DNA from: Psammoneis japonica | Lineage: Eukaryota | Length of the DNA: 64,000 nt | NCBI GenBank assembly: GCA_008632985.1 | Contig: QPGO01000017.1 | Coordinates: 558,001-622,000, forward strand | Reading direction: 5' to 3' | Part shown: piece by piece, positions 17,670 to 64,000 of the stretch | Position numbering within the stretch: position 1 is the first letter of the stretch | How the letters are laid out: every line of letters begins with the position of its first letter | Notes under the pieces: generated by a model | What the model was told of the DNA's origin: nothing | The model's input: the letters and a program-made list of their open reading frames with translations, nothing else | The model's database searches: none | Program-made: the position numbers and the translations under genes

Positions 17670-19660
17670 GAGAAAGGTTGGCGGGGCAGGAGCTTGCACC
17701 AAGCATGCCAACAAAGCCAACAAGGAGCAGACATCCATGGAGAGGAGTTTGCTGGAGTGGAGGAAACAAAAACTTGGCTGTGCTGCTGGTGTGCTCACCA
17801 GCTGGGCCACTGATGACATTGGCGCACTGAGAGAACACAGCTTTGTAAGCAAATGAACTGTCTTGTTGAGCAACAAGTCAGAAAAGATGTTGGGCACCAA
17901 ATGGCAACAACAAAAAGCCTGTGATGACACAACAAAAGAGGAGCTGCATCACAAACACATGCAATGTGATGACAGGGTTGTGGGCTGGAGCAGACAATGA
18001 ACTGTGCAACCTGAAAAAAAATGACTTTGATTGCAAGCTCATGACTGACAAGAAACTCTCACAATGAAATTGTTGTGTGGAGTTTGCACAACATTTTCTT
18101 TGCTTTGGAGCCTTTTTGGTGAACAAAATGTGGTTTGGCAAAAACTGCAGCCTGTGCCAATGCCAACAAGTGATCTGTCAAGTGTGACACTTGTCTGGGG
18201 TTGTTGCAAAAGCACCAGTTTCAGTGCTGCAAGTTGTTTGCAGGCAACATGCAGGAGTGGCTGGAGTCATGTGTCCGTTGCTTGTCCTGTGCATGTGATG
18301 TCCACAAAGTTGACTCTTTTGGCCTTGCATCCTCAACCTCACTTTGAAGTGCTTTCTTTGCAAAATTTAAGAAACTTGCCATGCACAGCAAAGTCTCTGG
18401 GCAGAATGGTTTGTGGCAAATGACTGAGCTGCACCACAAGATGCATCAATTGGAAATTGCCAGTTGCTTGAGGGCTTTGGTGCCCCTGTCTGAGGTGCTT
18501 GTCTGGTTGCCAATGAGTCAGAAGACACTCAAAACACAGAGCCATGTGCAGGTGGGGAAGTGAGAAATCCTGCAGAACTCTCAAACTGCCACACAGTGCA
18601 CAACTTCTTTTGCAGCACTCTTGTGGTGTGCACCCCATCAACCTCTGTCAACAAGAGTCCACAGCACCAGCACTGAAAAACCAAGCCAGCAACACTTTTG
18701 CAAAGCCCCCAGCAGTGCTGGCTGGCAAGGAATTTGCCCCTTTGTGGGGCAATGAAGCAACATGGTCCATCCCCCCTGAGATGCACAGAGCACATGAATT
18801 GTTCAAAGGCAGCTGAAAAGGGTGGGACACACTGTGGTTTGCAACTCTGAGCTGTCCAGAGAGTTTTTCAATGCAAGTGTGGCCAATGGTGGCACAAACA
18901 TCAGCAAAACAACAGTGCACCACAACAGCCAGAGCAAGGCCCATTCCCCAGCATCAAGGTGTTTTCCATCAGAGGGTTTTGCTGCACAGTTTATCAACAA
19001 GAAGTGCAAACACTTGTCATTGAGTTTGTTTTCAATGTCTCTTCAGCTGCCCTCATTGAATGATTGAAAAAAATCACAATGTCTTGGAGGAACTTCTTTT
19101 GGAGCAAAACCTTGTTGTGGAGGACCAGACAAAACTTGTGCCATTTGACTTTTCTGTTTGGCTCAATTCTTCACATTGTCATTTGAATCCCAAGTGCAAC
19201 AAGAACTTTTGTGTTGCATTTTTGGGTTCACCACAATGGCCAACATTTGCTCAAACCATGGATGGTGACTGTTTCAATCTCAGTTGTTGCAGATGTGACT
19301 CAACTCAACACATGCAACTGCACTCCTGGTGAACAATGTCAACATTTTTGGCTTCAGATGGTGCAAAGTCATCTTCTTCATCTGATGACATTGTCTTGGC
19401 AACCCATGCAACTCAAGCCATTGTCAATTCCTTGCAAACTTTGCTGCTGCACCTTGTTTTGCCAATGATGTTGCTGCTCTCTTTTTGCAACCACGAGCTG
19501 TCATCCACCATTGTCATCTCATGGAAACCACTGCTGCTGGTTTTTGCAGCATCTTCCCAAGCCAAAACTTTGCTCACATCTGTTCAAGCCAAGGCATTGC
19601 AACCCAACAACCACAGCAAATGCCTCCAGTCTGACAACATTTTGAACCATTCGAGACATT
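17670..19660. mobile_element. Heavily degenerated, unclassified repeat-like sequence, depleted of TpA and CpG
   Basis: Almost no TA or CG dinucleotides; only broken Cys/His-rich ORFs; same signature as the identifiable TE relics downstream. Confidence 0.4.
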
Positions 19661-19895
19661 GAGTTTTGTGCCGTGCACGCACCTTGCTTTTTTTTTTTGG
19701 GTGAGCAGGCCAGTCTACTGCCAGCTAGAGAGTGGAGTTCTTCCAGAAGCGATTTGAGTGCAAACACTGCACAGCACATTCCCCCCTTTCAATTTTTTCT
19801 ACATTGCTCGCACTCCATTCTAAAGCAGTCAGCAACTAGCCCACAAACAGAACAGACAGTGTGATGTGACCGTGTGATCGCGCCTTTCTCAATTG

Positions 19896-22193
19896 TCAAC
19901 GCAAGACGCAACCAATCCCTGTCTCTTCCGCGCAGAGTTCAAAGATCTGTCTGAACAATGGCATGGCGTCACTCGCAAGGATTTGATCTTCTGGATTATA
20001 GGCAAGCATCTTCTTCATGCAGCCAATCAGCTCCGACCCGCCCGTCACCTCTTGAAAACATTTCAATTTGGAGTTCTCAAAGACTTTGGTGCGGAGCTTG
20101 AGGTTTGCGTCGCGAACGGGCAGCTTTCCAGTCAGAAGGCAGTGCAGAATCACGCCACAGCTGCAAATGTCGACTTTGGTGGTGGTTCCTCCAAGAGTGC
20201 TTGGGAGCAGTTCTGGAGCTCGGTGCACACCCGTTCCAGGCCCTTCTGTTCCAGCGCTGTCTTCGTGAACGGTGCGTGCCAACCCAAAATCAATCACTTT
20301 CACCTCCATTTTGTCATGGTCACGTTTGTTGCCGTCAGGGCAACCCACATCCTTTGCAAACAAAATGTTCTGCGGTTTAAGGTCGCGGTGGATCACTTGC
20401 TGGCATTCGGCTGCACTGAGAGCAATCATGAGCTGTGCCATGTAGCGAGAGAGATGCGGCGAACCATGATCATGGCATCCACTTTCTTGAAATCTGCGAC
20501 AACAACATCTGACGTAGATCTGCTGCACTCTTCCATGAGCAACGCCAGAGCAACCTCACTCTGCTCCTCCTCCTCGTCCAGTCGAACATCCAAGACAAAC
20601 CACCCATGTAAGTTGGCCACGTGGCGTACGCCATTGAGCAAAGAGTGGCAGCACATTGGTCGACATCCACATTTTGGGATGTCGTCCATCGGGTGTGCCT
20701 CCAACTTGAGGACAGCCGAGAAATTCGAGAAGGCAACCGGAACAACTGTGTGACAGGTTCCAAAAGTGCCACTGTCAACCTCATCAGCAATGTGCAAGCG
20801 GTCAAGGTTCCAGACACATCCAGCAGCTGCATGCTCTAACACATCCTTTGGTTCTGGCTTTCCAAGTCTCTTGCGTTCATCATTGAATTGCTTGATCAAG
20901 TTGGGAAGGTCTTCAAGAAAGTGATCACTTGCATCTTGATGCTCAAAGTTCTCCAGACAAGGACGAAACATGTCACTCATTGTCTGAAGTCGAACAGGGA
21001 ACAGTGGTTCCCCTTTCTCCATCATTTCTGTGATCTTTGGCGCTAATTTCGTGTCGATTGTGCCAATTTCGGTCATCTGAGAAGAAGTGGCTGCAGGGGC
21101 TGTCGAGCTCGCAGCAAGGTTGCAGTCCACAGCAAAACTGTTTCCCGCAGCAACGGTTTCTCCAGCATTGTTGAACAAGGATCCGCAGCCCAACTCATGC
21201 AGGCAAGCTTTGGAATCGTTGAGGAAACAATCAAGGATGTCATGACCCGGATTGAGCTGCTCAAGCTCCATGTGGGCAGCCTCAGTGACCGGAAAGGACC
21301 GAGATCCAAGCTTCGAGAGCAACGCATGTGGAATGGTGATGGCCTCGGGGGTCATGCGGGTGCCACAGTCATCAGAGATTTGTTCCGACACGACCATCCA
21401 TGGCCACCCAGAATCCAAAACTCGACTGGGCCACTTTCTTTGTGACCAGTGCTGACTTCAAAGCGGTCTTCAAGATCTTCCTTTGCATGCTTGAGTTTTG
21501 CAGGAAAGCTCTTGAATGCTTGCTTCATGGCTGCACAGCGAGAACCAAAGGCCTCCACAATTGCGTCCGTTCCAACTTGCCCAAAAATGGCTTCCAACAT
21601 GACTTTTTTCACTGGCGTTTTGTGCGCAAAGCCTGTTTTCTTGCGGATGGATGCAACGCGGTTCTTGAGGTGTCGGAGAGCATCTTGGCAAACGACTGTT
21701 CTTCCAGGAGCGATTTGCAATGTTTGTCCCCTTTGTCACATGGAAGGAGGCTGTCGAGAATGTAAGAAGCAAACTCAAGGATGGCGGCATTGTCGCCGGA
21801 CTTGTTGAAATGGACATCGGGCACTTTGCTCGCATCAGCAGCAATTCAAGTCAATGATTGCCACAGCTGGGAAGGTCCTGCATGTTGCTCGTGTAAGACA
21901 CAACTGGTTCGCTCTGCCTGCAATTCAGCCAACAGCAAGCTTCCTAATTTGTCTGTCTTGAGAATGAATTTTTTCCTGCAGGACACCAAAGCTTCAGTGA
22001 TGGCCTTGTCGGCATCGAGGAGTTTGTTGGTCACAGCTTGGAAAGCCCCACGCAAGTCCATTTGGGTCTTTCCGAAAACCAGAGCATCTTCTTCCTCGAA
22101 GGCAATCTTGCTGGCAATCACATGATGCTCTCTGCGGTTTTCACCCCCATTGCGGGTGTGAGGCGTGGGCGCTGTTGACAACCGCTCCGTCAT
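19896..22193 (-). pseudogene. Ser/Thr protein kinase pseudogene with long N-terminal region, frameshifted
   Basis: SGTFGTCH, HRDLKPQNIL, VKVIDFGLA, GTGVHRAPE and KVDICSCGVILHCLLTGKLP spread over several frames. Confidence 0.85.
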
Positions 22194-22309
22194 GTTTCAT
22201 TTGTTTCCAAAGCAATCCACAGTCGCGTTGGATCACTGCTTGCTGCTCTCTGGAGCTAAAAGCTTTGGCTTGCTTTTTGCTTTGGCTTGTTGCTTGATGA
22301 TTTCTTCTT

Positions 22310-22790
22310 GTCAGAAGGCGATGATTCGGCCAGAAAATTGACTGAAATCAAGGGGAATTCTGGCTAAAGTGCGATTTGGAAATTTTGCGGCAAAAGCCAG
22401 TGGACATTCTTGCCAGAAGGCGATTCGGCGAGAACATCCGACTGAAATCGAGAGAAATTCTGGCCAAAGTGCGATTTGGAAATTTTTGCCGAAGAAGCCA
22501 GTGGATGTTCTTGCCAGAAGGCGATTCGGCGAGAACATCTGACTGAAATCGAGGGAAATTCTTGCCAAAGTGCGATTTGGAAATTTTTGCCGAAGAAGCC
22601 GGTGGACATTCTTGCCAGAAGGCGATTCGGCGAGAATTTCCGACTGAAATCGAGGGAAATTCTGGCCAAAATGCGTTTTGGAAATTTTTGCCGAAGAAGC
22701 CGGTGGATGTTCTTGCCAGAAGGCTGTTCGGCGAGAATTTCCGACTGAAATCGAGGGAAATTCTGGCCAAAGTGCGATTTGGGAATTCTT
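22310..22790. repeat. Tandem repeat, 101 bp unit, ~4.7 copies
   Basis: gccagaaggc recurs at 22412, 22513, 22614 and 22715; unit gccagaaggcgattcggcgagaatttccgactgaaatcgagggaaattctggccaaagtgcgatttggaaatttttgccgaagaagccggtggacattctt. Confidence 0.95.
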
Positions 22791-22859
22791 GGCCTTTGCG
22801 CGCGCTGCCGCTTCACAGGTCACAGGGGAGACTTGTCCATCCGCCCTGCTGCGTCAACT

Positions 22860-25800
22860 CCGAAAAGGACACACGAAAGATGCGCGCGGCAACGAGGACG
22901 GTGTGCATTTAGTGGATGTGCACGGGCTGTGTCCAGGAGGCGATACGAACGTCGATGCTGGTGTCGGCTTTGTCCTGTTCATGAGGGACGACGTTGACAA
23001 AGCTGAGCTCAAGCGCACGGTGATTCATCGCAAGTTTGTCCATTTACCTTGTGTGCAGAGACAGCGTCACAAGTTGCGAGGCCGCACGGGTGCCTTGGAC
23101 CAAGCACCAATCCACTGAAGACGAGCGCAGCGTTCTTGTCATGGATGGTGACCGTGGACAAATTGATGCAAACACGGTTTCCCCACGTTGGCGGAGGCAA
23201 GGGATGAATCTGAGAATGACGAAAACTCCGGTTGGCGGTTCGATTCCCCTCCGACTTCGCTCGTTCATAAGCTCATCTACTCATGTTACAAGGCTCGGCA
23301 CCTTCCTGTCATTTATGAAAAAAAGGAACTACCCAGTGAGACCACAGCTCCTGCTCCTGTCCTTCCAGTTGATCCTGCTAACCATGAGGTCAGTCGTCTG
23401 CGCCATTCGAATCCGATGTGGCAAGCGAGTGCGGTCAAGGTTGTAGACGAGTTCATGTCTTTTGGTCCGGAGCAAATGCAACAAACCGCGCAGTTAGTTC
23501 CGATTCTGATGCAACGACTCGAGACACACAAACGTCAGCGACTCAAGAACTATGACACTCACCGCAACCACTGGACACTCCAATGGGCAGAACAGAATCT
23601 ACTGCTGATGGCGGCTTTGATGGTCAGCCGCGGCCACATCCTCCCAAACATTGAGTTTCGGAGTGGTGCTACATCCTTGTTACTCCACCCAAAGGCACAG
23701 TCTGAGAAGTGCACTGGAGATCGTCACATGAAGGAAGGTGCGTACGGATTGTGTCACTTCTGCACACCCGTTAGGTCGGGAAAGAATTCAGGTGCCAACA
23801 CAAATTTTGGAGTGCGAGACGATGAGCATCTAAAGTGCTCTAAACTCACCGAATCTAAGCATGTCAACAATGCTCTCTATTCCTCGTATCCATCCAAGGA
23901 AATCGGTCGAGACATGAAAGAGCAAATCAAGTCACAACAGAAAGGATGGTATGAGGATCTTGAGATGGTCACATTCTTTGGGTGGTCACGCAGTGATAAA
24001 GACATCACAAATTTGCTTACCTCAGAAGGCCCTGATGGCTTGTTCCAATGGGATGCCGAGACCTTGAAACACCTAGAAGAGTCTAAAGTCGGTGGTACTC
24101 TTTGGTCCAAGAAATTGGCAATGGTAGGTTATCTGGCTGAGCTTGCCCACGATCTCTGTCTCGGCGAAGACAATATCTCTAACTCCCCTGGATTCGAAAG
24201 CTTCGGGTTGCTTCAGATTCACCTGAACTAGGACCTAGAGACAAATGGTGTCCTCTGTAGCTTTGACAGCTGCTGTCTCACGCGCATTGTCCTCCGGTGC
24301 GAAGCTATCTATACGGGTCAAAAAGAACAATGAACTGCGTTAGTCTCAGTGCTAAAAGGGGATATATAATACACAACTTCTCAATCACACTTACCTTTTG
24401 CACCAAGTTCTAATCAAAAGTAGTGGCACTCTCTACTAGAGAGTTCATCCTACAATAGCGGAGACTTCTGCGCTTAGGCCGGTACCGTCTTCATTACTAT
24501 ATGGCTTCTCGCGCACAGCCGGCACCGTGCTCCCTACTGCTAGTAGAGAGATATCTTTCCTGTGTCTTAGAATAGTAGATCAGTAAGTCATCATTCGAAA
24601 TGGTGAAGTATGCACACACACACTCTACAGTAAGCATACGGTACGTACCGTCCAGAAGCAACAGCTTTTACGCCTACACTCCATCCCACATTTCATCGAA
24701 TAGTCATACATCTCTACTAGATCCGACTAGGAACTGAGAGCTCCAGGATCTGATTTCCCCATATGAGTAAAGAATATCAAAAGATATCTATCATGTAGAA
24801 TATGGGCCTGGAAATGCCACTGCAAGCTTTAACAGCCAACGATAGTCATACTGGAAAATGACAGGCAAAATTAAGATATGAGTGGAACAACGTACACAAT
24901 AACAATCCATTGGGGTTACATATCACAGTATACTCACTAGTGCACCTTTTAGAGGTAGAGCTGAGTCGCCTTACCAATTATTATGCCCCCAAGTACCATC
25001 AGCGGTTCGTGGCATACACGCATTCAAGAGGAGGCGATGAGCCCGCCAACACAAGCATCAACCTCCCCATTTTACCCATTGCAAAGCCTAGAGTCATAGT
25101 TACACCACAAAGATCTCCCAAAATAACGCGGACAATATCATGTCTTAGATAATGATGATAATGCGGTTGAAGGGTAGGTGGAAAGGGTCAAAAAGGACCA
25201 GATACCTGCACGCATGAACGAGACGCACAAAAAAAGGCTCGTGAGGTATGAGAATTTCGTCAAAACGAGTCTAAAAGCCAATCAATCACATTGTACTCAT
25301 AGGATTACCTTTTTTGGACTATGATAAGACTGTCTGACAAATGCCAATGTCGTAAATGTCCTCCAGGCTCCATCGCGTCGTTTTGTTTTCTCGGCATGCA
25401 CTTTCCAAATATTGTGACGGCCGAAAAACGACATGCCATGATTATGCGCCGACCAAGCCCCCAAGAAGGATATCAAGCGCGTCATAAATCCATATTAATA
25501 TACATAATAGGTACACCAAAGGATGTAGAGTGGGATGAGGCATAAGGCTCTCAAACGGATACGCTGTGGTGGTGCAAACGCCGCGAAAAAAACACCAACA
25601 TCACAGATGCAACAATCGACCGCACGAGACGATCAATCCACCTATGAAGCTTTAACAAAGCGCAAACAACATCTTTAGTGAGCATGTAATTGGTGTAAAA
25701 TGAGAAAACAAAGAAAGAACTTACCTCTGTAACGTTGTCGACCATTCAGATGTAGCCCGTACCGTGACGCAATCGAGTCACGAGTCGAGGCACGCAACCG

Positions 25801-25910
25801 TTTATACCGTGTGTCGCAACCGAAGCCCCCCCGGAAACCAAACCAATGTATCAACCTCTTTATAACAACAATAGAAAAAGATCCCCCAAGAAAGATACGT
25901 CAGCCCAACG
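22860..25910 (+). mobile_element. Internally deleted repeat element, probably a DNA transposon; ORF 23188-24231 plus 3' non-coding part; homologous to ~56950-59190 in inverted orientation
   Basis: Clear homology to the minus-strand copy from ~23183 onward; upstream piece has a possible DDE-like motif VLVMDGDRGQIDA; superfamily not established. Confidence 0.6.
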
Positions 25911-26181
25911 AAGTTTGCCATGTCGAGACACATCAAAGTGCAACATGCCGTTTTTTATGCCAAATCGGGAACGTTTGAGTCCAATCGACTTATTCGACTC
26001 ACGTACTTCATCGTGGTGAAATTTCAGTCACGGACGCCGGGAACGTTTGAGGCCAGCGGTAGCCTGTGTCGTCGATACCGGTAGATCTGACGTCCATTAG
26101 CTTCAAAGCTGTACCGGTATCCTCTTTAGGCTTCTTAGGTATCATTGTTGCAGTCCGTTTCTACCTTACTCATCCTTCAGT

Positions 26182-26560
26182 ATGGCGAACCGTATTCTTC
26201 CTCTCGAATTGATCGATAAAGCTATCGGATCGCAGCTGTGGATCTTGATGCGGGGAAAAACAGAGATTGTTGGCACGCTTCGAGGTTTTGATGATTACGT
26301 AAGTGACGGTACATACGTCTTACCAAATCTTTGGTTTTAATCGATGACTCATTTCGTTTTGTTCGATTCGTTTTGTGACTGTGAAGGTAAATCTTGTCCT
26401 GGATGATGCGGTTGAATATGCACCCGACGCAACAAACGAAGGACGAGTCACGAAGACGGAACTAGCAAGCGAAATTTTGCTCAACGGAAATCAGATAGCT
26501 GTGCTAGTTCCCGGGGGAGCAGGGCCACCAGAAGACTCGTTGGTGTCACGCGCCGGATAG
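26182..26560 (+). CDS. LSM5: U6 snRNA-associated Sm-like protein LSm5; exons 26182-26298 and 26387-26560
   Basis: MANRILPLELIDKAIGSQLWILMRGKTEIVGTLRGFDDY/VNLVLDDAVEY...ILLNGNQIAVLVPGG; GTAAGT...AAG intron; exon 1 is absent from the ORF track. Confidence 0.95.
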
Positions 26561-26599
26561 AAGTGACACAGTGTGGGGTCGTGACGATGACCAAATGCG

Positions 26600-33014: not shown

Positions 33015-33159
<145 letters not shown>

Positions 33160-53749: not shown

Positions 53750-56015
53750 ATGGAGCCGGTGACAGTGTCTTCATTGAAAGATGATCCAAGGAGGTGGGGA
53801 GAAAATGATGTGTGCGTTTGCAGCTGGGGTGATGCACACCATGAGATTCAGAAACAATTTTGTGCTCTTGCCATTGCTGGAGAGTGTGAACCTCACGCTG
53901 GTTGGTGCAAGCGACTGCAGCTTTTGGGAGACTCAGAGAAACAGTTGAAATGGAGAGGTGCTGTGCTGTTGAACCTTGGCACATCTGAAGATTTGGTTGC
54001 CAACATGGAATCGGTCCCGGCAGCGAGACAGCATTGGACGGCTAGACAGTTGGAGTTTTTTGACAAAGGCAAGAAAGCATTCACGCCCCTCCCTGCAACA
54101 GAAATGAAGGCACTTGCTGTCACCTTTGACCAGCAGTTTAGCATTGCAAAGAAAGGAAAGAAACACTGTTTTCATTGCCCCAACGTGTCAAAGGAATCAC
54201 TTCTTGCCGAGACAGCAAGGTCGCCGCGCGATTGCCACAAGGAAGCACGTGATGAGCAAGTGGCATTTGCAAAGCTTGGCAATTGTCATCAGGCTTTCAA
54301 GGAGCAACACACTTTCTGATTTTGTCAATGAAAATGAAGGCTCCAACAAGGAAAATGACAAACCAGCACCGGTGACACCAAATGCATCATTGCAGGGAAA
54401 GGATTTTGCAGTGTCAAATGAAGCTCAGGCCAAGGTGAAGTGCCTGAAGGGAAGCAAGCGGACAGCAAGCTGCAGGAAGCGCAAAGCCAGCAATCCTCCT
54501 CCTCCTTCTGAACCTTCATTTGTTGCTGATGAGGTGGAAGATTTCTTGACAAATTTTCTTGACAGCAACTCGGCGTGTTGGCACCAGCTGACGTCAAGAG
54601 AATGGCATGCCAACAATCCCGAAGCAGCCAAGGACTTGTTTGGATTTCAGTCTCTTGATGAGGCAAAGCGGTGCATGTCTGCATTCTTTGCCGATGTGCC
54701 TGTGCATGTTCCAACAATCAAGTTTGTTGCCAAAGAGAAGAAGCTCATGTACGACCCACCGGATCCCACTGCGTTTGAACAGGTGCTAATTGCGAAATGC
54801 TTTGTGCACCACTGTCCAGTCGGAAAGACAACGGGATGGGTTTTTGGGGTGGTTCCGACTGCAGCGTTGAAGCATCTGAACAAGTGGGCCCCATGTTGGG
54901 GCAAGCATGGCGAGTTTCTTTCTATCTTGCCGACACCTCCCGACCATTTTGACAAGGAGCTGCTGGATGAATTTGTTGAGCAGAATCTTGACAAAACTGC
55001 TGTGTTGCTGGATGGCAAGGACACACCAACAGACACCATGCGGAAGGATGATGCAGCACATCGTAAACAAAACAGCAACAAGATGGGCTGCTCTGCATTT
55101 CATTTTATGAATTTTGCATCAGCGTGCACATTGTCGCATGAGCACACAAGGGCGCATGGGGCTTGAGTTGATGAGAAATGTCTTGTGGAGGCAATCGGTT
55201 CATGCCAAAAGGAGAAAGCTCCCATTCATGAGTGGAAAGACCATGCCAAAGAAAACAAGGTTCAAAAAGAGCTCAGGCACTGGATGGTGCGGGATGACTT
55301 GGTGGTGGGGAAGGAGCTGGAGGAAGCAGTGGTGGCGACAGATTCCCACAAGGCTCAGGAGACGGATGATGCAAACAACAGATGGGCCAGTTCTAGAGTT
55401 GTTGAGTTTTCAGATTTTGATTTTGGGCCCAAGAGTGATGACAGCAGCAGTGAGAGTGACCAGAGTGGCCCCAGCAACACCGACTACAATTCGGACTCGG
55501 AAAGCATCGCAACGGCCGCCTCCTCCGCTGCAGATGATCTCAATCCGAAAGATTGTCAACACATTGTGGATCACATTGACAAGTGGTTCAATGAGTGGCT
55601 GGAAATTGTTTGCATGGATGGAAAGCTGTGTGAAGCTGGCTTGGACAAGGTCACGCCAATGCTGAGCAAGAATTGCAACCAAATGAAGGCCATGAGCAAG
55701 AAGGCGCTGCATTTGTTGCCCCAGAACTCTCCGGAGAAATTGCTGCAGCAACTTGAGCTGTTTGAGAGACTGCACAAGTTGCATGACCAAAACACAATTA
55801 AAAGGTGCATCCTGAGTGCACACTTGGAAATGATGAAAGAGCTCCAGTGGGATTTGTCATGCTGGCTTGGCAGCGAGTTGAAACCAGGAGGTCGCGTTTT
55901 GGACAACAATGGCGAGGCTCCCAGGGATGCATTTTTGCGCCTGTGCAAGATGCCACCAAATGAAGATGGTCTTGGAGACAAGGGGTTTGAGAAAACAGAT
56001 GTTTGTTTTGACTGA
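53750..56015 (+). mobile_element. PIF/Harbinger-ISL2EU-like (DDE_Tnp_4) transposase pseudogene, 3'-truncated
   Basis: HTH-like TAFEQVLIAKCF...VFGV, then VLLDGKD...KQNSNKM...HEHTRAHGA*VDE and LGDKGF; stops and frameshifts. Confidence 0.65.
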
Positions 56016-56215
56016 AGAGCGGTCAATGAGCTCTTTGGCGGATGTGTTGGATCCGACATCACACACTGTGCCGCAACATCCTTGTGACAGTTCTTGTGCA
56101 GCCAAACTGAAATGTTGACCCCAAGTCTCTTTCCTTGGGCGTCACTGAAGGGAATGGAGGGTTGAGCATTGACAGGGCCAAGCGTCTTGAGCCACAGACC
56201 TCCGACACCCATCAT
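56012..56215 (-). pseudogene. N-terminal fragment of an XPG/FEN1/Exo1-family nuclease
   Basis: MGVGGLWLKTLGP...GKRLGVNISVWLH fits the XPG_N pattern MG(V/I).GL...GK...(V/I)D.S.WL. Confidence 0.65.
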
Positions 56216-56949
56216 GCGTGATGAGTTGTGTCATGGTCGCTGCGTTGCAAATCTTGTGTGAAGCAAGGAAAAAATCGGCAATTTTTTCATGTTCATGGCC
56301 GATTGAAGGCAAAGGGAAAAAAGGAGGGGATTCCAACAGTTGAACACACACACACAATTTGACCATCATCAGAGGCCGCAATGTGGTGTTGTTCACTTTC
56401 CTTTGGAAAAATCGGAACATTTGATTTAATGAAAGCATGGCATTGTCAGTTAAGTTCAATTTCAAATGCAATGGTCAACTTGAATTTGTTGTCACCTTTT
56501 TATGTCTGCAATTGTCGCCGTTTTCTTTTGAATTAAATTCGCCAAAGACTGTCAACACATCTTTTGTTGTTGAACAATGCATTTTGTGTTGATTGGTTTT
56601 TCACATGTTTGTTGAAACGTTAACTTTGACAGTGCTTTTCAACAGCTCCACCGCAGTCTTGCATCACCACAGACAATGGCATTTCTTGCACACCCAAGTC
56701 GGCCACGTGATCACCTGGCTCATCATTTCCACCTGCACCCACCAGTTTTCCAGTCAGCAGCTCCCTGCCTGCCTTTTGGCACCCACTCCACATGCGCAAT
56801 TCTCCACCCATTTCATGACAGCACACCCTCTCCCCAAAAAGCATTTGACAAGAGGGTGTGCTGTTGTGATTCCTGCACATTCTACGTGAATCGGCATCTG
56901 ACTGTTGGCCATGGCGTCTAACGACTTTACCCCGTCTCACGATGCATGG

Positions 56950-59900
56950 ATCGTTGGGTCGATGCATCTTTCATTTGGGATCTTTTTCTGGTGTTGTTAT
57001 GAAGAGGTTGACACATTGGTTTGGTTTTCTGGGGGGATTTGGTTTTGACACACGGTGCAAACGGTGACGTGCCTTGACTCGTGACTCGATTGCTGCAGTG
57101 CACGTGTAAACACATGAATGGTCGACAATGTCGCGACGGCAAGTTCTCTTTGTGTTTTCTCAATTTACATCGTTTTCCTGTTCACTGAAGATCATTGTTG
57201 TTTTTTGTTACAGCATGTAAGGTCGATTGATCGTCTCGTACGGTCGATTGTTGCATCTGTGATGTTGGTGTCTTTCTCATGGCGTTTGCACCACCACAGC
57301 ATGTCCGTTTGGGAGCCTCATGCTTCATCTCACTCTTTGTCCTTTGGTGCATCTATTTGCACCATTTGTTTGCACTCGTGACGAGCTTGGTGTGTTTTTG
57401 GATGTCTTGGTCGGCTCGCAATTACAGCATGTCGTTTTTCGGCGACAACAATTTCTTGACAGTGCACACCTTCAGAATGAAACGATGCGAATGAGCATCG
57501 AGGACACCTGTGGCGCTGACATTTGTCGTGCACTCGCACCATAAACCAAAGTAGCTATGGCTGTGAGCATGTTGTGATTGTTTGAGTTTTGAACTCGTTT
57601 TGACGAAACTCGCATGCCTCGCTAGTGTTTTTTGGTGTGTCCACTTCAAAGTGCAGGCATGTGGTCTATGACAACCCTTTCTTCCTGCTCTGCAAAGGCA
57701 TTGTCATCACCATCTAAGACATTATGTTGCCCACGCTATTTTGGGAGATCTTGGCAGTGTGACGACTTGTCTGGGCTTTGCAATGGGTGAAATGGGGAGG
57801 TGGAGGCTTGCATGGCCGGGCTCCTCGCCTGCTCTTGCATGCGTTGACACAGCGAACCGCTGGTGGCACTTGGCGCCAGGAAATTTGGCAGGGCGACTCA
57901 GAACTGACTGTGAAAGGTGCCCCAGTGAGCACACTGTGACATGCAACCCCAATGGATTGTTGTTGTGTACGTTGTTCCACTCACATTTTCATTTTGCATG
58001 TCACTTTCCAGTGTGACTGTCGTTGACCGTTAAAGCTTGCAGTGGCATTTCCAGGCCCACATTCTACATGATCAACATGTTTTGATGCTCTTTGCTCACA
58101 TGGGGAAATCAGATCCTGGAGTGCTCAGTTCCTAGTTGGATCTAGATTAGAGATGTGTGGCTGTTTGATGAAATGTGGGATGGAGTGTGGGCGCAAGCTC
58201 TGTTGCTTCTGGATGGCACGCACCACATGCGCACTGTAGAGTGTGTGTGTGCACCATTTCAAATGATGCTTGCCGATCTGCCATTCAATGCACAGGAAAG
58301 ACATTTCTCTAGCAGAAGTGGGGAGCACGGTGCCGGCAGTGCGTGAAAAGAAACACAGTGATGAAGACGGTGCCGGCCTGAGCACAGAAGTCTAAAGAAT
58401 GTGACCATCTCAAGATCCTCATGCCATCCTTTCTGTTGTGACTTGATTTGCTCTTTCATGTCTCGATCGATTTCCTTGGATGGACATGAGGAATGGAGAG
58501 CATTGTTGATGTGCTTTGATTCGGTGAGCTTGGAGCACTTTAGATGCTCATCGTCTCGCACTCCAAAATTTGCATTGGCACCTGAATTCTTTCCCGACCT
58601 AGCGGGTGTGCAGAAGTGACACAATCCACAGGCACCTTCCTTCATGCGATGATCTCCAGTGCACTTCTCAGACTCTGCCTTTGGTTGGAGCAACAAGGAT
58701 GTAGCACCACTCCAAAACTCAATGTTTGGGAGGACATGGCCGCGGCTGACCATCATGGCCACCATCAGCGGTAGATTCTGTTCTGCCCATTGGAGTGTCC
58801 AGTGGTTGCGTGAGTGTCACAGTTCTTGAGTCGCTGACGTTTGTGTGTCTTGAGTCGTTGCATCAGAATCGGAACCAACTGAGCGGTTTGTTGCATTTGC
58901 TCCGGACCAAAAGACATGAAATCGTCTGCAACCTTGACTGCACTTGCTTGCCACATCGGATTCTCACAGAGAGGATGCCCAACCTCATGGTCAGCAGGAT
59001 CAACTGGAAGGACAGGAGCAGGAGCTGTGGTCTCACTGGGCAGTTCCTTTTTTTCACAAATGACAGGAAGGCGCCGAGCCTTGTAACGTGAGTGGATGAG
59101 CTTATGAACGAGTGAAGTCGGTGGGGAATGGAACCGCCTGCCGGAGTTTTCGTCATTCTCAGATTCATCCCTTGCCTCCGCCAACATGCCTTTGTTTGCA
59201 CAAAACTTTGACGGCTTGTCTTTCATTGATCGGAAGAAGCGTGCATTCACAAATGACTGCAACTGTGAAACGGCAAGTTTTGCGTACATGTCGATCAATG
59301 CCTGTGCCACAATTGGTCTGTCTGACTCATCCATAAGTTGAAGACTCTCGTCGCTGCTCATCATGTCCAGCATTTTAGATTCCGCTGCCACAGCTTCATC
59401 ATGTGCTTTGTTGTGCGCTGCAATTTCACGGACAAGTTTTGCCTGCTTCTCGGCCCGCAGGCAATCCTGTCGTTCCTTCCGGGCTGCCCTTTGACCAGCA
59501 GAGTTAAGAAGTTTGGCATGCTGCAGGGGTTCTTGTGAAACACCGGCATCACACCGGTGTGGGATCACGGTCCTTGGGGAACTCGAGTTCATCAAAAACT
59601 GTTTCGGGGATGTGACCCCCGTTGTCATCCCACGCTTTCATCAAGGTGGGGAAGGATCGGAGGCAAAGATCGCATTCTTCTTGGGAGACTTGCCGTTTGA
59701 CAGCAGACATGACGGATTCAAAATCAGGACAACACAGAGTTTTCTGGTCAATGACACCAGAGACCACGAATCCCTTCAGAATCTTCTTCCATTGTAACGA
59801 CTGAGTCAGGATTGACGGAAGCTTGGTGAGCAAGTCGACGATTGTATCCTTGTCCTTTCCAAGCTGAAGGGGAGTCTTTTCCAGGGCTCTTGTAGCCTCC

Positions 59901-60010
59901 AACTTGTTTGTGTGAGCATGGACGTCTAACTCTGTGGTGGTGGCTTGTTTCTTCAGGACAGATTTTGCAGCGCTGAAGACATCACAGAAGCAATTGAGTG
60001 CATGCACGCC
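56950..60010 (-). mobile_element. Inverted, TpA-depleted copy of the 22860-25910 element with ~0.8 kb extra 5' coding sequence and a deletion equivalent to ~23980-24460
   Basis: ORFs 58765-59628 and 58259-58765 align with 23188-24231; non-coding homology extends to ~25910. Confidence 0.8.
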
Positions 60011-60830
60011 AGCACAGGCATGTTCTCAATTCACAATGACCTGGACTGGTTGAAAAGCATCGTCAACCATGGGATTGATGCTCACCAGCACCCGGAGCAT
60101 TGGGACCACGTCGCGACTCACCAAGACAGGCAAGGAAGGATGTGCTGCATCTGCAGCACTTGGCACGACAAAGGAGAGAAAGAACTGAGGGATCAATTTG
60201 CAGTGGGTGCGTGTGATGACACAAAACCAGTCATTGACAGGGGAGACGTTTCGAGATTGAGACGGAATTCGAGCGTCAGCTTGCCAAACCTGTGGCATGG
60301 ACGAGACTGGCACTTGCGGACCGTTGGGAGAAACATCAGCAAGGGGAGGCACTTGCGGACTGGTGATGGACAAGAAGGGCATTGTTTGCGATGCATTAAA
60401 ACTGGCGAAGTGGTTCCAGGGTGACATCGTGCAAGACAACCATGAAAGACTTTGGTTCTGTGAGCAAATGGAGTTCTTCAGGTTGTCTCCAGGGAAAGTC
60501 AATGAATGGATGCTGGACATTGTCCGAAGGAGGATGGTGAGCGGGAAAAATTTCAAAGCAGGAGAAAGGAAAAGTGTTGGGTGGAGAGACATCGTCGTGT
60601 TGAAGTTAACGAATTCGTGAGAATGGTCGGAGTGGAGACAAGGGCTTTCACCCACATGACTGACTGTTCCGACAGCGGGCGACACATCAGGTTTAGAGTT
60701 ACGAAGTTAGAGGGTGATGACGAGTTGGACCAGAAAAAACGATTTGGCGCCAAAAAGGATGGATGTGCTTGGGCCCCAACAGCAAACCGGAGTGACGTTA
60801 AAGCAGGTGAGGGGTGTGTTCATTGCAGCT
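60010..60830 (+). pseudogene. Degenerate unknown ORF, probably TE-borne
   Basis: Frameshifted, protein-like frames 59945-60424, 60297-60620 and 60506-60832; TpA-depleted. Confidence 0.3.
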
Positions 60831-61163
60831 AAAACAACTTCCACAGGTGCATGTTTCACAATGATGTTTTGAACAAAATGCTTTTGCAAGCAATTTACAC
60901 TGTGGAAGTGGATTTCGAAATTGCAGCAAAAGAGAGGTTTGAACTGGAATTCGCAATGATTCAAAATTTTCACAAGACAACAAGGAGTGGTAAAATGGAC
61001 AAATTGTGTGCACATTTAAAGATTTGGTTGATTCTCCATTGTGTTGCATTTGAGAAAAAGGAATCATTGTTGGCAACTGTGAGATTTTTAGTGTCAAAGA
61101 GAGGTTTGAAAATTTCCCAACGACGAAAATCACTGGGGACACAAGGCCTGGAGCCAACCACAA

Positions 61164-62395
61164 TTGGCGACAGTGGCACAGGCAATGGCCAGGAAGAAGA
61201 GGAAAGAAGATCAACCGACAAGCCCAAGGCCAGCCACAGGGTTGGTGCGGGTGGGAGCCACTGGGGATCACCAGTCTACAAAGAGAGAGGTGGAAGAGGT
61301 GGCTCGGAAGGAACTTTTCCCAAAGGCAAAATTCCTTGTCAAGGCGGACATGGCAAGCAGTGGCAAAGTGTCGCGGCTCATCAGGAAAAAGACAGCCGGA
61401 GGCAATTGCAGCAAGCAAGACTGGGCGGGAGCGTGGGAAGACTGGGCAAAGAAGTGCGTCATGCATGCAATTAACGTGAAAAGGAGCACGGTCACTCAGG
61501 CGATCAAGAACAATGCAGCGGCTGGCAAGTGTTTTGTGGTGCACGGCATGTTGAGTGCAGTTGCACTTGACACAGCTGCACCTTTATTTGCTGAAGTCGT
61601 GTTGACAGAGAATGAAGCAGAGGAGACACACAGTCAGAAGGAGCCGGCAGCAAAGGGCAGACGTGGGAAGAAGAGCAAGAAGAGGAAGAAAAACAATTGC
61701 ACGGAAGAGGAAGAGCCATTCCTGGCAACTTGGGGTGAGGAGACAGTGACAACGATTGTGGAGGACAAGCGCAAGAACAAGGAAGCACATGCTTGGTTCT
61801 ATGAAAACATCCTGAAATTCACAAAGAGCACCACCACATGGAGAAGGAAGGTGGAGTCGGGTGAGACGAAGGCAACTGGTCTGGCTGCAGCAAGCGACGA
61901 GGCTCCAGCACTGTTGACATTGGAAAACTGCTGGAAGAGTTGGGAGCACAAGGCACGTCATGACAAGACTGTTGCAGCAGGGGGAGGTTCGGACAAAGAA
62001 GATGAGGAAGAGTCGGAACCAACACCCAAGCACATGGACCCGTCGAGGCAATGAGACTCCTGGAAGGATGCAGGGATCAAGCGATTCAACGAACTGCTTG
62101 CGGAAGTAAAGAAAGACAGGTTGAGTGAGGAGGGCATGCAGTTCAACACATGGCACAGCAAAGGCAAGAAAAGGAAGAGTGACGAAAGAGGCAAGGGATC
62201 AAAAAGAAAGAAAAAGCCCCGGTGGAGGAGGCAAGAACACAGGCAATGACAGAGCTTTCAAGTGACAACAAGGAGAAGGAGGAAGAGGCAATGGACGAGA
62301 ACAGAGGAGACGAGGACAGCGAGGAAGAGGAGGACGAAAGTGATGCGGGCAGCAACACGAATGTAGATGCAGAGGTTGAGCGAGCTGCGGTGTGA
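61164..62395 (+). pseudogene. TE-associated protein with SDEA.ALL.LEN.W motif and acidic tail; in-frame TGA at 62052-62054
   Basis: 296-aa ORF continues after the stop as DSWKDAGIKRFNELLAEVKKDR; paralog at ~30 kb. Confidence 0.55.
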
Positions 62396-62829
62396 AAAGG
62401 CAGCGGAGGCTTTTGTGAGTGTGACAATGGAAAGAGGACAAGCAATGTAGCAGGTTTCAATGCCAACAGTTGCAAGGTTTAATGAAGCATTTTAGGAATC
62501 ATTGGTTTGTGATCTAACCTTTCGTTTGACAACCAGTGCAAGCAATGGAACCAGTGCACACAACAAAAGGTTCTTAAACCAATGCAACGCAAAGATTGGC
62601 ATTAATTTGTCATTGGCCAAAACATTGTGAACATTGCTTTCAAAAGGTAAAAAGTGACGGAATTCTGACAGTTGAGGGAGGGGTCCCACAGGCAAAGGAG
62701 GGGTCCCATGGTGAAAAATGGTGCACTGTGATGTGTGACAAAAAATCACGTTCTACACAACTCTCTCAAAAGGATGGTTGTGTGTTTTGCACATGCAATG
62801 GCATTAAAAATCACCTGTAAGAAGGGTGG

Positions 62830-64000
62830 TCAGGATCACCATGTTTCGCGCTCTGATGATGCAACCAGGGCCAGAGTTGCACTGGCTTCTTTTGGTCCAG
62901 GTTGGTTGCTGCAGGTGCAAAGAGTGGGGCACATTGCAGCTGCAGGAGGGTGACAATGTGACTCTGAGTGTGTGCTGCCAAGCTGAGAATTCCAGCTTGG
63001 TTGTGAGTGCCAAGCCCTGCCAGGCCAGCTGCCCTGGCTCAAGCTGCTCCTCCCAGTGTGTGCGTCAATTGTTGAAGGAGCACCACATTGACTCAAAGGC
63101 TGTGTTTTTGGTGGAACACAGAGGGAAAAAAATGTTGTCTTGACTGGTGCTTGCTTCAGACCCTGCATCATGAGCACAAGCTCCTCTTGAGAAATGAGCA
63201 AGGGATGCTTCACACAGTCATTTTTGGTGCCTCACTTTGGTTGCTCACTTGGCATTGCCAACAAACTCTTGAACCCCACCTCACTCACAGTTTCTTCACT
63301 CTTCAACCACAAAAGCAGGCTCAACTTTTTGTTGGCTTCTTTGTGGCCGGGGGTCACTGTTGCAGGCACAGGTGGTGGGCACATTGCCCCACGTGGGTGG
63401 CTCTGCTTGGCAACAATGTGATGCCAAGCAAGCATGTGCTGCACACCAAGGAGCCAAGCAGCCCAGCTCAGCTTTGAATGGAGCCCCAGGACAGCAGCAA
63501 GCTCTGGGTGCTCCCAGAATGGCTTGCTTGCTCAAGCTGTGCTGCATTCACCCCACAATGCTCTGTGTTGTGGTGGCTTCTTACAAGCCGTGAGGAATCT
63601 GCAGTTGGCCAGGGGCCCATTTTGTGAAGGCCACACATGTTGTGTGAGGGGCCAGATGCAGGGATCTGCAACAATGGCTTTGTGGCTGTTGGTGCCAACT
63701 TGGCATTTGATTGGGAGCCAGTGCTGAGGGGCTGTGAAGTGTGGGGTCAGGAGCCCAGCCAGCTCACACTCTCTTGTTGTCACAAAGTGCTGTCACAGCT
63801 GTCTTTGCATTGCAACCAGCCAGGTGCAGTTGGTCCCAAGCTGGCATTTGATTTGGAATGACTGCCAAGGAACTGCAAAGTGTGGGGTTGGGCAGTCCAG
63901 CCAGCTCGCACTCTTTGCGGACAGCAGAAAGTGCTGTTGCACACCTGTCATTGCACTGCCTGTGGCGCCAGCCAGGCACACATGGCCAGAGCAGCCTTGG
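62830..64000. mobile_element. Heavily degenerated repeat containing a ~141 bp-period duplication (~63689-63780 and ~63830-63920)
   Basis: TpA and CpG nearly absent; tggcatttgatt...aagtgtggggt...cagccagctc.cactct occurs twice. Confidence 0.45.

Follow-up and report, generated by a model that had tools for sequence, protein, structure and literature searches.

Evidence for domain-confined TpA-to-TpG/CpA hypermutation of transposon relics in a window of a diatom genome

Introduction

What could remove a single dinucleotide, TpA, almost completely from the transposon relics of a diatom while the genes next to them keep it at a normal frequency? The question is raised by a window of 64,000 nucleotides (the whole stretch of DNA analysed here) from Psammoneis japonica, in which a block of host genes is followed, from position 17670 to the end, by a repeat-rich region. 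[quoted passage not shown] Here we count what has been lost, establish the direction, context and strand symmetry of the change, and weigh the processes that could produce it.

Results

The gene block provides an internal control, with 768 TpA for 1189 expected and 1003 CpG for 1014 expected (observed/expected ratios, o/e, are in Table 1). Its Pfam matches are abhydrolase, Rad51, ADP-ribosylglycohydrolase, Nop56, WD40/THOC3, UPF0060 and PSP1, with no deaminase or TET/JBP domain among them, and the named homologues of its Nop56 are from diatoms. Beyond this block the TpA o/e drops from 0.65 to 0.02-0.06 in five cores (3/128, 21/427, 40/632, 4/105 and 4/67), which bears out the contrast between genes and relics first noticed by eye, and CpG is lost in the same cores (3/92, 34/348, 27/487, 20/113 and 9/89). 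The span 17670..64000 as a whole has 588 TA for 3075 expected. TG and CA stand at about 1.6-2.0 times expectation, and their excess amounts to 73-96% of the missing TA plus CG in all seven zones tested, while the GC content of depleted zones is 0.44-0.53. Erasure is 93-98% complete and shows gradients as well as sharp borders, the TpA o/e falling from 0.53 to 0.03 across 250 bp at 17.5-17.75 kb. In the LTR element the estimate of about 30 TA made by eye proved to be the exact count, and stops that survive there are indeed mostly TGA: both strands of 37362-43648 contain 33 TAA, 16 TAG and 345 TGA trinucleotides (304, 358 and 648, respectively, in the gene block), and one frame of the element has 67 stops.

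Table 1. Features of the window; TA and CG counts are observed/expected.
Feature	Positions	Strand	Observations
Host gene block, internal control	1..17600		TpA o/e 0.65, CpG o/e 0.99
Core 1, TpA and CpG both gone	17751..19500		TA 3/128, CG 3/92; left edge sharp, ~17.5-17.75 kb
TpA-only zone	19501..23000		TA 21/216 but CG 162/221
Protein-kinase fragment, within 19501..23000	19899-20555	-	
101-bp tandem repeat, within 19501..23000	22305-22791		
Element A, copy 1	23184..25911	+	TpA near normal; used as ancestral-like reference
Element X, copy 1, left part	26099..28168	+	TpA normal to ~27.0 kb, then falling toward insertion
TpA/CpG-erased core	27251-33500		TA 21/427, CG 34/348
5.4-kb insertion splitting X copy 1	28169..33621		Mostly inside core 27251-33500; one N at 33015, (CA)72 at 33016-33159
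Element X, copy 1, right part	33622..36222	+	CpG back by ~34.0 kb, TpA only by ~34.5-34.75 kb
LTR element relic	37362..43648	-	TA 30/440, CG 19/338; LTRs 37362-~37672 and 43334-43648
Element X, copy 2, unbroken	43694..48564	+	TpA fully depleted beside LTR element
Core	51501..53250		TA 4/105, CG 20/113
TpA-only zone	53251..56500		TA 14/214, CG 96/190
635-codon reading frame, within 53251..56500	54108-56012		Interrupted by a single TGA
Element A, copy 2, depleted	56951..59188	-	79/119 reference TpA read TG (42) or CA (37); 22 kept
TpA-only zone	58001..62500		TA 42/281, CG 158/270
Core, runs off window end	62751..64000		TA 4/67, CG 9/89

The same element had been labelled Copia. Its two LTRs end in TG..CA and are 72-79% identical. 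For the family, which is a tentative assignment, domain search of the element gave two collinear RVT_2 matches on the minus strand (~38596-38938; E 0.17 and 0.013, scores 11.9 and 15.5, below the cut-off of 31.6 bits) and found neither gag nor integrase (rve). The flanking pentamers differ where a 5-bp target-site duplication was looked for, which is weak evidence after so much mutation.

The assembled bases are supported by reads: contigs built from a public run (word depth ~120; possibly the same sample as the assembly, library type not on record) cover 34-54 kb at an identity of at least 99%, a 1773-base piece having no difference from the window and a 2487-base piece 17. Among the 40 differences listed, out of 124, 17 are CpG<->TpG/CpA and 7 are TpA<->TpG/CpA, although TpA is rare in this region; these 7 are the sole hint of ongoing activity.

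The direction of the change was read from copies within the window, the copy with normal TpA serving as the reference for its depleted partner. In pair A, the 119 reference TpA had become TG 42 times and CA 37 times, with 22 kept and 18 otherwise changed; in pair C none of the 45 was kept, and 40 had become TG (21) or CA (19). Reverse changes numbered only 2 and 3, respectively, in agreement with the direction originally proposed. The change is specific for TpA. Per site, A>G reaches 0.356 after T in pair A (84/236), against 0.068 for ApA, 0.091 for CpA and 0.040 for GpA, and 0.46 in pair C (40/87), against 0.09-0.14 in other contexts (0.086 for ApA). The two pairs, which are independent, thus agree in a 4-9-fold enrichment at TpA over the three other contexts; the A>G that remains outside TpA is expected for old copies. 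The reversed comparison has no TpA peak (4/59), and transversions at TpA in pair A (A>C 0.025, A>T 0.047) are the same as in other contexts. At the protein level, the ORF 23167-24228 of element A copy 1 has 9 Tyr codons. Of the 8 that can be aligned, the depleted copy has replaced 7, 4 by Cys and 3 by His, as had been described. Outgroups offer only anecdotal support for Tyr loss in the window, with a single column that has Tyr in 3/3 outgroups and His here. Element A itself gave a weak RAG1/Transib-like lead and nothing stronger.

The first-pass annotation had staked its proposal on enrichment of A>G at TpA, on raw-read support for the bases and on family members that are not themselves TpA-poor. 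All three outcomes favour the proposal: the first two are given above, and for the third the less mutated copies (copy 1 of A and of X) and two of two environmental relatives have normal TpA; the relatives, being TpA-normal, carry no information on how widespread the process is.

Flanking bases matter. A 3' pyrimidine follows 104 of the 346 TpA half-sites that survive, whereas normal zones have one at 1152 of 2022 (p=1.5e-20), and in direct pairs TAY was mutated at 83/178 sites and TAR at 41/145 (p=8e-4). Survival relative to the average is 7.2 times for TTAA and 0.14 times for ATAT. The preferred site is 5'-T-A-Y-3' (full site R-T-A-Y), and TTAA and CTAA are spared. TadA and ADAT2-ADAT3 act on tRNA A34, which follows U33; the natural site of bacterial TadA, U-A-C-G, has a 3' pyrimidine and matches the T-A-Y preference, while a purine occupies this position in most tRNA targets of eukaryotic ADAT2/3.

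Several observations place the change on DNA, after insertion. The two LTRs of one element, and likewise both copies of central X, show opposite outcomes (TG in one, CA in the other) at the same sites. Such TG<->CA pairs number 10, 39 and 17 in pairs E, C and B, and exceed all 500 column shuffles in six pairs of six; between the LTRs they make up 10 of the 21 double differences (shuffle mean 0.76, maximum 4), and LTR divergence is 0.303 at YpR positions versus 0.093 elsewhere. Outcomes are balanced between strands (42 TG versus 37 CA in pair A, 21 versus 19 in pair C; 4611 TG versus 4713 CA across 17670..64000), as expected from the strand-symmetric A:T>G:C transition process that had been postulated. 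They are also interleaved, the number of runs (40 and 23) being close to that for independent sites (40.3 and 21.0). The TpA change is thus DNA-level, post-insertional, strand-symmetric and not strand-coordinated. Kataegis of the APOBEC/AID type was considered and rejected for lack of strand-coordinated runs in these two comparisons, with the reservation that saturation could blur old bursts.

TpA loss and CpG loss can be separated. Four zones have a TA o/e of 0.07-0.32 with a CG o/e of 0.5-1.0, no CpG-only zone was found in the window, and pair A retains 22/119 TA versus 63/109 CG. C>T is raised at CpG (0.147 versus ~0.055 in pair A; 0.416 versus ~0.15 in pair C), and the CpG loss of the cores is, as judged from the sequence, a second, separable process, ordinary 5mC>T decay. 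TpA loss at least roughly keeps pace with CpG decay and proceeds almost to saturation. The separation from CpG decay and the polarity opposite to RIP, both part of the original proposal, are upheld by the TpA-only zones and by the TA to TG/CA direction.

TpA loss extends 0.75-3.5 kb past CpG-depleted cores. In X copy 2 depletion is partial at 45.5-47.2 kb, where CpG is normal, and TpA is normal past ~47.25 kb. We infer from three or four borders in this one window that the loss spreads beyond cores, and the TpA-only zones could just as well reflect domains of different age. In both A and X-left, TpA persists in copy 1, whereas copy 2 has lost 79/119 and 40/45; in the X bins of 26.1-28.2 kb, 40 sites were lost in copy 2 only and no site has TA in both copies. 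Depletion also crosses element borders and takes in the kinase fragment and the tandem repeat. Since one copy can be normal while its twin is erased, and since borders are crossed, targeting looks domain-based rather than homology-based. The term 'repeat-targeted' therefore holds in that the repeat-rich part of the window is affected, but not in the sense that it has for RIP.

Discussion

This work describes what is very probably a hypermutation of DNA in this diatom, confined to defined chromosomal domains that hold transposon relics together with whatever lies in or next to them, by which TpA becomes TpG or CpA (A:T>G:C). It acts after insertion, equally on both strands and on one site at a time, destroys Tyr codons and TAA/TAG stops and leaves GC content unchanged; it appears to be of the same kind as the process seen de novo in Bigelowiella natans. 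For targeting, we propose a repressive chromatin domain nucleated on transposons and extending past the CpG-depleted core, unless the TpA-only zones are simply younger domains. As for the chemistry, a candidate TadA/ADAT2-like deaminase recruited to repressive chromatin may convert adenine to hypoxanthine, which is then read as G. This chemistry, taken by itself, is a tentative assignment, although we favour it over the others; the whole statement, with process, chromatin targeting and adenine-deaminase chemistry, we regard as reasonably probable.

The main rival of adenine deamination starts from the other base of the dinucleotide. A TET/JBP-type dioxygenase with the same domain targeting would oxidise the T of TpA to 5hmU or 5fU, and the oxidised T would mispair with G or be mis-repaired, giving T>C, that is TpA>CpA, and TpA>TpG from the other strand. 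As TpA is self-complementary, all our sequence results fit a T modification equally well, R-T-A is an equivalent reading of T-A-Y, and sequence alone cannot separate the two chemistries. 5-formyluracil pairs with G and the 5hmU of dinoflagellates favours TpA, but 5hmU mostly pairs with A and is, to our knowledge, not a strong T>C mutagen. According to the available text of the two articles concerned, the 5hmU made by a TET/JBP homologue of dinoflagellates is concentrated in repeats and has a role in transposon silencing (PMC11572971), and hmU at TpA on both strands is treated as a lesion, the excision of which should give breaks and indels (PMC11804724). Here, in contrast, the changes are mainly clean transitions, with no rise in transversions at TpA. 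Thymine oxidation is unlikely in our view, and adenine deamination is favoured. The case is weaker still for another of the candidates first put forward, a Y-family polymerase of the Pol eta type (WA hotspot) that would be called to heterochromatin again and again for error-prone repair synthesis, for instance when deaminated 5mC is repaired, the heavy CpG decay of the cores supplying lesions. A>G changes at WA motifs are a known product of Pol eta, and its signature combines hot TpA and ApA with A>T and A>C transversions. However, ApA is not hot in either pair (0.068 versus 0.356 for TpA in pair A, 0.086 versus 0.46 in pair C), transversions of A at TpA do not exceed the background, and patch synthesis would hardly reach near-complete loss of one dinucleotide; moreover, TpA has also disappeared from stretches with intact CpG (19.5-23 kb and 45.5-47 kb), hence without dependence on CpG lesions. 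This candidate fits poorly and is very improbable.

A-to-I hyper-editing of retrotransposon transcripts by an ADAR- or ADAT-like enzyme, fixed by reverse transcription before integration, would account for the 5' U preference, which such editors share (bioRxiv 10.64898/2026.01.13.699255, main text), and the most depleted block does contain an LTR retroelement relic. Nevertheless, LTRs are identical at integration, and their 10 TG<->CA pairs already contradict RNA editing, as do the strand symmetry, the crossing of borders, the depletion of the kinase fragment and the tandem repeat, the depletion of a single copy where elements without RT occur twice, and the in situ differences between read-derived contigs and window, which still fall at TpA; we give it hardly any weight. 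Equally little weight goes to selection, for instance to escape transposases or nucleases that target TA or TTAA, and to GC-biased gene conversion among repeats. TpA is admittedly under-represented in most genomes, and in the gene block (0.65), but this DNA is dead, with its 67 stops in one frame and its Tyr codons destroyed, which makes selection implausible; TTAA, the classic target site, survives best, the opposite of what avoidance would give, and biased gene conversion would lift A>G in all contexts, whereas it is 0.04-0.09 outside TpA. The least credible explanation is an error of sequencing, base-calling or polishing at modified bases, with 5mCpG read as TpG and modified TpA as TpG or CpA. 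Both lost dinucleotides are possible modification sites, nanopore base-calling makes systematic errors at methylated motifs, and the supporting run may share its sample with the assembly; against this, the read-derived contigs agree across depleted blocks, an erasure of 93-98% has gradients and sharp borders, and clean and erased copies also diverge by 8-15% at non-YpR positions.

If the rest of the genome resembles this window, TpA>TpG/CpA hypermutation occurs in a second major algal lineage, and an ecologically dominant one, and what was a one-species curiosity, known from a single Bigelowiella preprint, becomes a candidate for a widespread genome defence. The window adds that erasure can be near complete and can hit transposon relics after their insertion, that it is separable from CpG decay, has a longer reach and is not homology-triggered like RIP, and that T-A-Y is preferred and TTAA spared, two properties required of every candidate enzyme. 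In practice, TpA erasure escapes GC plots and RIP indices, transposon and domain annotation fails on erased DNA (150 ORFs searched gave one Pfam family above Pfam's cut-off), the loss of TAA and TAG stops inflates spurious ORFs, and dating by LTR divergence will return ages that are far too old, given a divergence of 0.30 at YpR positions versus 0.09 elsewhere. Base editing, too, would have a use for a natural enzyme capable of clean A:T>G:C changes in chromatin. A broader and more speculative reading, which we hold to be rather doubtful, is that diatoms and chlorarachniophytes have in common an old, possibly SAR-wide, chromatin-directed base-modifying defence, in which an adenine deaminase or a thymine oxidase recruited to silenced transposons and integrated viruses would rewrite R-T-A-Y faster than methylated CpG decays. 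Were it true, this defence would be a eukaryotic equivalent of RIP, reversed in polarity, and at the same time a natural A:T>G:C editor of double-strand DNA, and much 'unclassifiable' repeat DNA of such genomes would be transposons made unrecognisable by the process.

Comparison with known systems

RIP of ascomycetes has in common with the present process a dinucleotide-specific transition hypermutation that causes missense and nonsense changes in transposons, a potential to leak into neighbouring sequence and a defence logic. As described in the parts of the literature consulted, RIP is C>T, mostly CpA>TpA, so that it makes TpA and lowers GC (PMC2621366, PMC7296669), and it mutates both copies of a duplication (PMC2621366). 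Fungal RIP was rejected here by its chemistry, TpA being destroyed and not created with GC at 0.44-0.53, and by its trigger, one copy of A and of X-left having kept TpA. Deamination of 5mC accounts for the CpG>TpG/CpA half of the change in cores but cannot remove TpA, as the four TpA-only zones illustrate. A-to-I deaminases (TadA/ADAT2-ADAT3, ADAR and TadA-derived base editors) share with it an A read as G and a 5' T/U preference, according to the main text of the B. natans preprint (bioRxiv 10.64898/2026.01.13.699255), and differ in that their natural substrates are RNA, while the substrate here is DNA; DNA adenine deamination by amphioxus ADAT2 is cited in the same preprint. The TET/JBP system of dinoflagellates, another SAR lineage, modifies T, is enriched in repeats and is tied to transposon silencing, but the available text of that article describes 5hmU as an epigenetic mark and not a mutator, and mentions neither TpA>CpA decay nor diatoms (PMC11572971).

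The closest system is that of B. natans. According to the main text of the preprint (Mettrop et al., bioRxiv 10.64898/2026.01.13.699255), mutation-accumulation lines gained 231 mutations in two viral inserts, 230 of them A>G or T>C changes, all at TpA, with a rate of ~6e-7 per site per generation; the process is episodic and raises the de novo rate ~1000-fold in living lines. Its long-term trace is low TpA with high CpA+TpG, RT and DDE domains are over-represented among TpA-poor coding sequences, and ADAT2 is the enzyme that the authors propose. The first-pass annotation had known of no description of such a process; this part of it does not stand, although no report of TpA hypermutation in a diatom was found in the literature searched. 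The two cases differ in host, a chlorarachniophyte (Rhizaria) versus a diatom (Stramenopila), and in evidence, de novo mutations versus comparison of old copies. Depletion is mild in B. natans (the NCLDV insert has a Rho TpA of 0.45, the cut-off for clusters is <=0.43, and the virophage region is undepleted), whereas here it is near-saturated in five cores and extends over tens of kb of transposon relics. CpG erasure coincides with it here, a point on which the main text of the preprint is silent, and the flank preference, the post-insertion evidence from LTRs and the reach past CpG-depleted cores are likewise particular to this window with respect to that text. Common to both are changes almost exclusively A>G/T>C, at TpA, with TpG and CpA as products on both strands, and confinement to foreign or selfish DNA, here by the contrast of cores with gene block in one 64-kb window; as the same signature arises de novo in B. 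natans, the kind of process is already known.

Results

Dinucleotide observed/expected ratios (o/e), computed in 2-kb and 500-bp windows along the whole window, distinguish three composition states. In the block of host genes (1–17600), used as an internal control, TpA o/e is 0.65 (768 observed, 1189 expected) and CpG o/e is 0.99 (1003/1014). The two other states are cores that have lost both dinucleotides and four TpA-only zones in which CpG is mostly retained despite TpA loss (see table); no zone of the window is depleted in CpG and not in TpA. In the LTR element at 37362–43648 (minus strand), TA occurs 30 times for 440 expected, exactly the number (about 30) that the first-pass annotation had counted by eye, and TG (783/451) and CA (660/330) are both raised. 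The missing TA and CG are matched at 73–96% by the excess of TG and CA in 7/7 zones tested, and GC remains between 0.44 and 0.53 throughout despite the depletion. The claim that surviving stops are mostly TGA is borne out in this element, where TGA makes up 345 of 394 stop trinucleotides on both strands, compared with 648/1310 in the gene block.

Composition zones, repeat copies and kinase fragment (TA and CG as observed/expected counts)
Feature	Position	Strand	TA	CG	Remarks
Core, TpA and CpG lost	17751–19500		3/128	3/92	
Core, TpA and CpG lost	27251–33500		21/427	34/348	
Core, TpA and CpG lost	36251–45250		40/632	27/487	
Core, TpA and CpG lost	51501–53250		4/105	20/113	
Core, TpA and CpG lost	62751–64000		4/67	9/89	
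TpA-only zone	19501–23000		21/216	162/221	
TpA-only zone	45501–47000		24/76	113/112	
TpA-only zone	53251–56500		14/214	96/190	
TpA-only zone	58001–62500		42/281	158/270	
Element A, copy 1	23184–25911				near-normal TpA
Element A, copy 2	56951–59188				inverted, depleted
Element X, copy 1	26099–28168 + 33622–36222				5.4-kb insertion between
Element X, copy 2	43694–48564				uninterrupted
Protein-kinase fragment	19899–20555	minus			Pfam Pkinase E 9e-26, within TpA-only zone

Repeat pairs inside the window, with one normal and one TpA-depleted copy, served as internal controls for the direction of the change. Element A has 119 TpA in its normal copy; in the depleted copy these read TG (42), CA (37), TA (22) or another dinucleotide (18), with only 2 changes in the opposite direction; in the left-hand comparison of element X (X-left), 40 of 45 TpA became TG or CA, none was kept, and 3 changes are opposite. 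The TA to TG/CA direction proposed earlier thus holds, with 79/119 and 40/45 changes against 2 and 3 reverse ones. With both strands pooled, A>G between the copies of element A occurs at 84/236 sites (0.356) when the preceding base is T, compared with 0.068 after A, 0.091 after C and 0.040 after G, and in X-left it is 0.46 after T versus 0.09–0.14 in other contexts. This peak vanishes when the direction of comparison is reversed, and transversions of an A that follows T (to C or to T) do not rise above background. C>T at CpG is also elevated (0.147 versus ~0.055 in element A and 0.416 versus ~0.15 in X-left). At the protein level, 7 of the 8 alignable Tyr codons of the element A ORF (23167–24228) have been replaced in the depleted copy, 4 by Cys and 3 by His, the very replacements that the first-pass annotation had noted.

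Survival of TpA in depleted zones is non-random with respect to the flanking bases: compared with normal zones, TTAA is enriched 7.2-fold and CTAA 2.7-fold among the survivors, while ATAT (0.14), ATAC (0.23) and ATAG (0.27) are under-represented. A 3' pyrimidine is found at 104/346 surviving half-sites versus 1152/2022 in normal zones (p=1.5e-20), and in direct repeat pairs T-A-Y is mutated at 83/178 sites and T-A-R at 41/145 (p=8e-4). Since survivors and direct pairs both point to a 3' pyrimidine, R-T-A-Y is the best target.

Both strands are affected equally, as the earlier claim of a strand-symmetric A:T to G:C process required: TG and CA outcomes number 42:37 in element A and 21:19 in X-left, and 4611 versus 4713 over the span. 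These outcomes are interleaved at random (40 runs for 40.3 expected; 23 for 21.0) and no clustering of retained TpA was found, so that the runs of outcomes give no hint of strand-coordinated bursts.

The two LTRs (37357–37661 and 43330–43648) provide information on timing, because changes made at an RNA stage before integration would be common to both. Of the 21 double differences between them, 10 are opposite outcomes in which TG in one LTR faces CA in the other; column shuffling yields 0.76 such positions on average and 4 at most. LTR divergence is 0.303 within YpR dinucleotides and 0.093 at other positions. An excess of opposite outcomes is present in 6/6 repeat pairs. As the LTRs differ in outcome at common sites, the process acts on integrated DNA.

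Depletion tracks position. In element A and in X-left, TpA is retained in one copy and erased in the other; duplication itself is therefore not the trigger, unlike in RIP. In copy 1 of element X, depletion has the inserted 5.4-kb block at its centre and tapers off within ~1 kb to each side; in copy 2 it is complete beside the LTR element, partial at 45.5–47.2 kb and absent further out. Another partly depleted zone lies at 56.5–58 kb, and islands with normal TpA lie at 23.2–27, 34.5–36 and 47.3–48.5 kb. At three borders TpA depletion outreaches CpG depletion by 0.75–3.5 kb, and in element A 22/119 TpA survive versus 63/109 CpG.

The sequence at 37362–43648 is an LTR retroelement relic. Its earlier assignment to Copia stands in part: the LTR pair and its TG..CA ends are present and the type is likely to be Copia, judging from two collinear RVT_2 matches in adjacent minus-strand frames (profile 104–152, then 183–235), which are sub-threshold and do not establish it; the flanking pentamers differ from each other. 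In whole-frame read-through no match reached E≤0.01, and relaxing the limit to E≤1 brought up nothing beyond weak RVT_2. This element is barely recognizable because the mutation process itself degraded it. Of the 156 ORFs of at least 100 aa in 17.5–64 kb, the longest 150 were compared with Pfam; the kinase domain is the only match above cut-off, accompanied by two weak sub-threshold matches; no Rfam family was found in the window. The kinase match covers profile positions 99–257 of 263, the C-terminal 60% of the domain, in an ORF with 3 Tyr in 219 aa, and may be a piece of a host-type gene caught in the mutated domain. In the same TpA-only zone, a tandem repeat (22305–22791; 101-bp unit, 4.8 copies, 90% match) is TpA-poor yet has a CpG o/e of 1.07–1.23.

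The element A ORF (plus strand, 354 aa) matches no Pfam family and has only two weak metagenomic homologues; comparison by a language model likens it to RAG1/Transib-type transposase fragments (score 0.92, 155 shared features, and a low recognition of 1647), a lead that element A may be a DNA transposon. For the element X ORF, viral_contigs contains no relative. The homologues of the frame at 54108–56012 are a single entry of the protein collection and two metagenome loci, all 33–40% identical and so distant that at most one Tyr column is informative; the two loci are TpA-normal and uninformative on the process in other organisms. The stretch 49341–51341 holds an element in very high copy number that repeats every ~1.1 kb: summed contig word depth is 18,000–42,000 versus ~120 in neighbours, many contig joints jump ~1.1 kb, and direct repeats occur at 49847–50096 and 50954–51205. 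It matches no Rfam family and is only partially TpA-depleted (o/e 0.11–0.20; CpG o/e 0.47–1.08). Within an erased core, a single N at 33015 is directly followed by (CA)72 up to 33159 (98% purity), probably an ordinary microsatellite (33016–33159) beside an assembly gap.

One public run, which may be the assembly's own sample and whose library type is not on record, contains 81% of sampled words of 40000–49999, and its contigs (word depth ~120) span 34–54 kb; runs X2 and X3 cover 12/30 and 1/30 bins. Contig pieces of 1773, 1374 and 2487 bases show 0, 2 and 17 differences from the window. Transitions predominate among the differences (24 A>G, 31 T>C, 21 C>T and 20 G>A, for 26 transversions); among 40 listed of 124, 17 are CpG<->TpG/CpA and 7 TpA<->TpG/CpA, although these dinucleotides are scarce there, consistent with the process being active, now or recently, between haplotypes or strains. 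Word depth falls to 60 at 35334–36667, from ~120–130 on either side, possibly a hemizygous or haplotype-specific stretch. Relative to the window, two runs have contigs with 24 additional GC-rich bases after 46197, either a read/assembly structural difference or a haplotype difference.

In the gene block, the Nop56 ORF (8405–9640) is 76–86% identical to its best matches; those named to organism are all diatoms (Pseudo-nitzschia, Stephanodiscus), and no protein among the matches listed is at least 90% identical. Rad51 (3157–4402, plus strand; profile 7–83, then 87–243) and Nop56 (8405–10181, plus strand; Nop profile 1–133, then 134–227) are each spread over two overlapping frames, for which short introns, in genes that otherwise have few, are the simplest explanation. 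A 651-aa open frame with 36 His and no Pfam family (14330–16282, plus strand) adjoins a PSP1-domain ORF (16330–17256).

Discussion

The TpA erasure described in the first-pass annotation is confirmed and the core of its interpretation holds. The process consists of post-insertional, DNA-level, strand-symmetric and site-independent transitions specific to TpA; it prefers R-T-A-Y, stays within domains and can be separated from CpG decay. We propose that a mutator would be recruited by repressive chromatin and that its chemistry would be adenine deamination. The mark that recruits it may extend past the methylated core, which would account for the wider TpA depletion; alternatively, the TpA-only zones may be younger, with TpA decaying faster, and both readings fit.

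The sequence data are equally compatible with thymine oxidation by a TET/JBP enzyme, because TpA is self-complementary and modification of T looks the same as deamination of A; moreover, a dinoflagellate TET/JBP homologue is described as making 5hmU that is enriched in repeats and tied to TE silencing (PMC11572971). Pol eta, one of the annotation's candidates, fits poorly, as ApA is not hot and transversions are not in excess. Editing of RNA before integration is contradicted by the opposite outcomes at common sites of the two LTRs, and the data likewise contradict a sequencing artefact, selection and biased gene conversion. In line with the annotation's statement that the enzyme is not encoded in the window, the scanned ORFs of the window contain no deaminase, TET/JBP or polymerase domain.

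Full-text searches, covering few subscription journals, turned up no account of diatom TpA erasure, and none appeared in two diatom TE papers (PMC2806351; 10.1101/2025.10.24.684338) or a chromatin paper (PMC4504042). The annotation knew of no description of such a process; this is superseded by one preprint, since a process of this kind was very recently described in another lineage, in mutation-accumulation lines of the chlorarachniophyte Bigelowiella natans (bioRxiv, 2026; 10.64898/2026.01.13.699255). There, 231 of 302 nuclear mutations fell in two integrated viral regions. Of these 231, 230 changed A to G or T to C, without exception at TpA; the rate was ~6e-7 per site per generation, and only some lines were affected. 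The same preprint reports 124 clusters of TpA-poor, CpA+TpG-rich windows and an enrichment of RT and DDE domains in TpA-poor CDS, and proposes an ADAT2 homologue as the enzyme; its main text makes no mention of diatoms, CpG, trinucleotides or flanks. Our window adds mechanistic constraints to this known process and implies a possibly broad distribution: the TpA signature is common to both, here in another supergroup-level lineage, whereas the diatom window is far more saturated, the targets are transposon relics and CpG is erased alongside.
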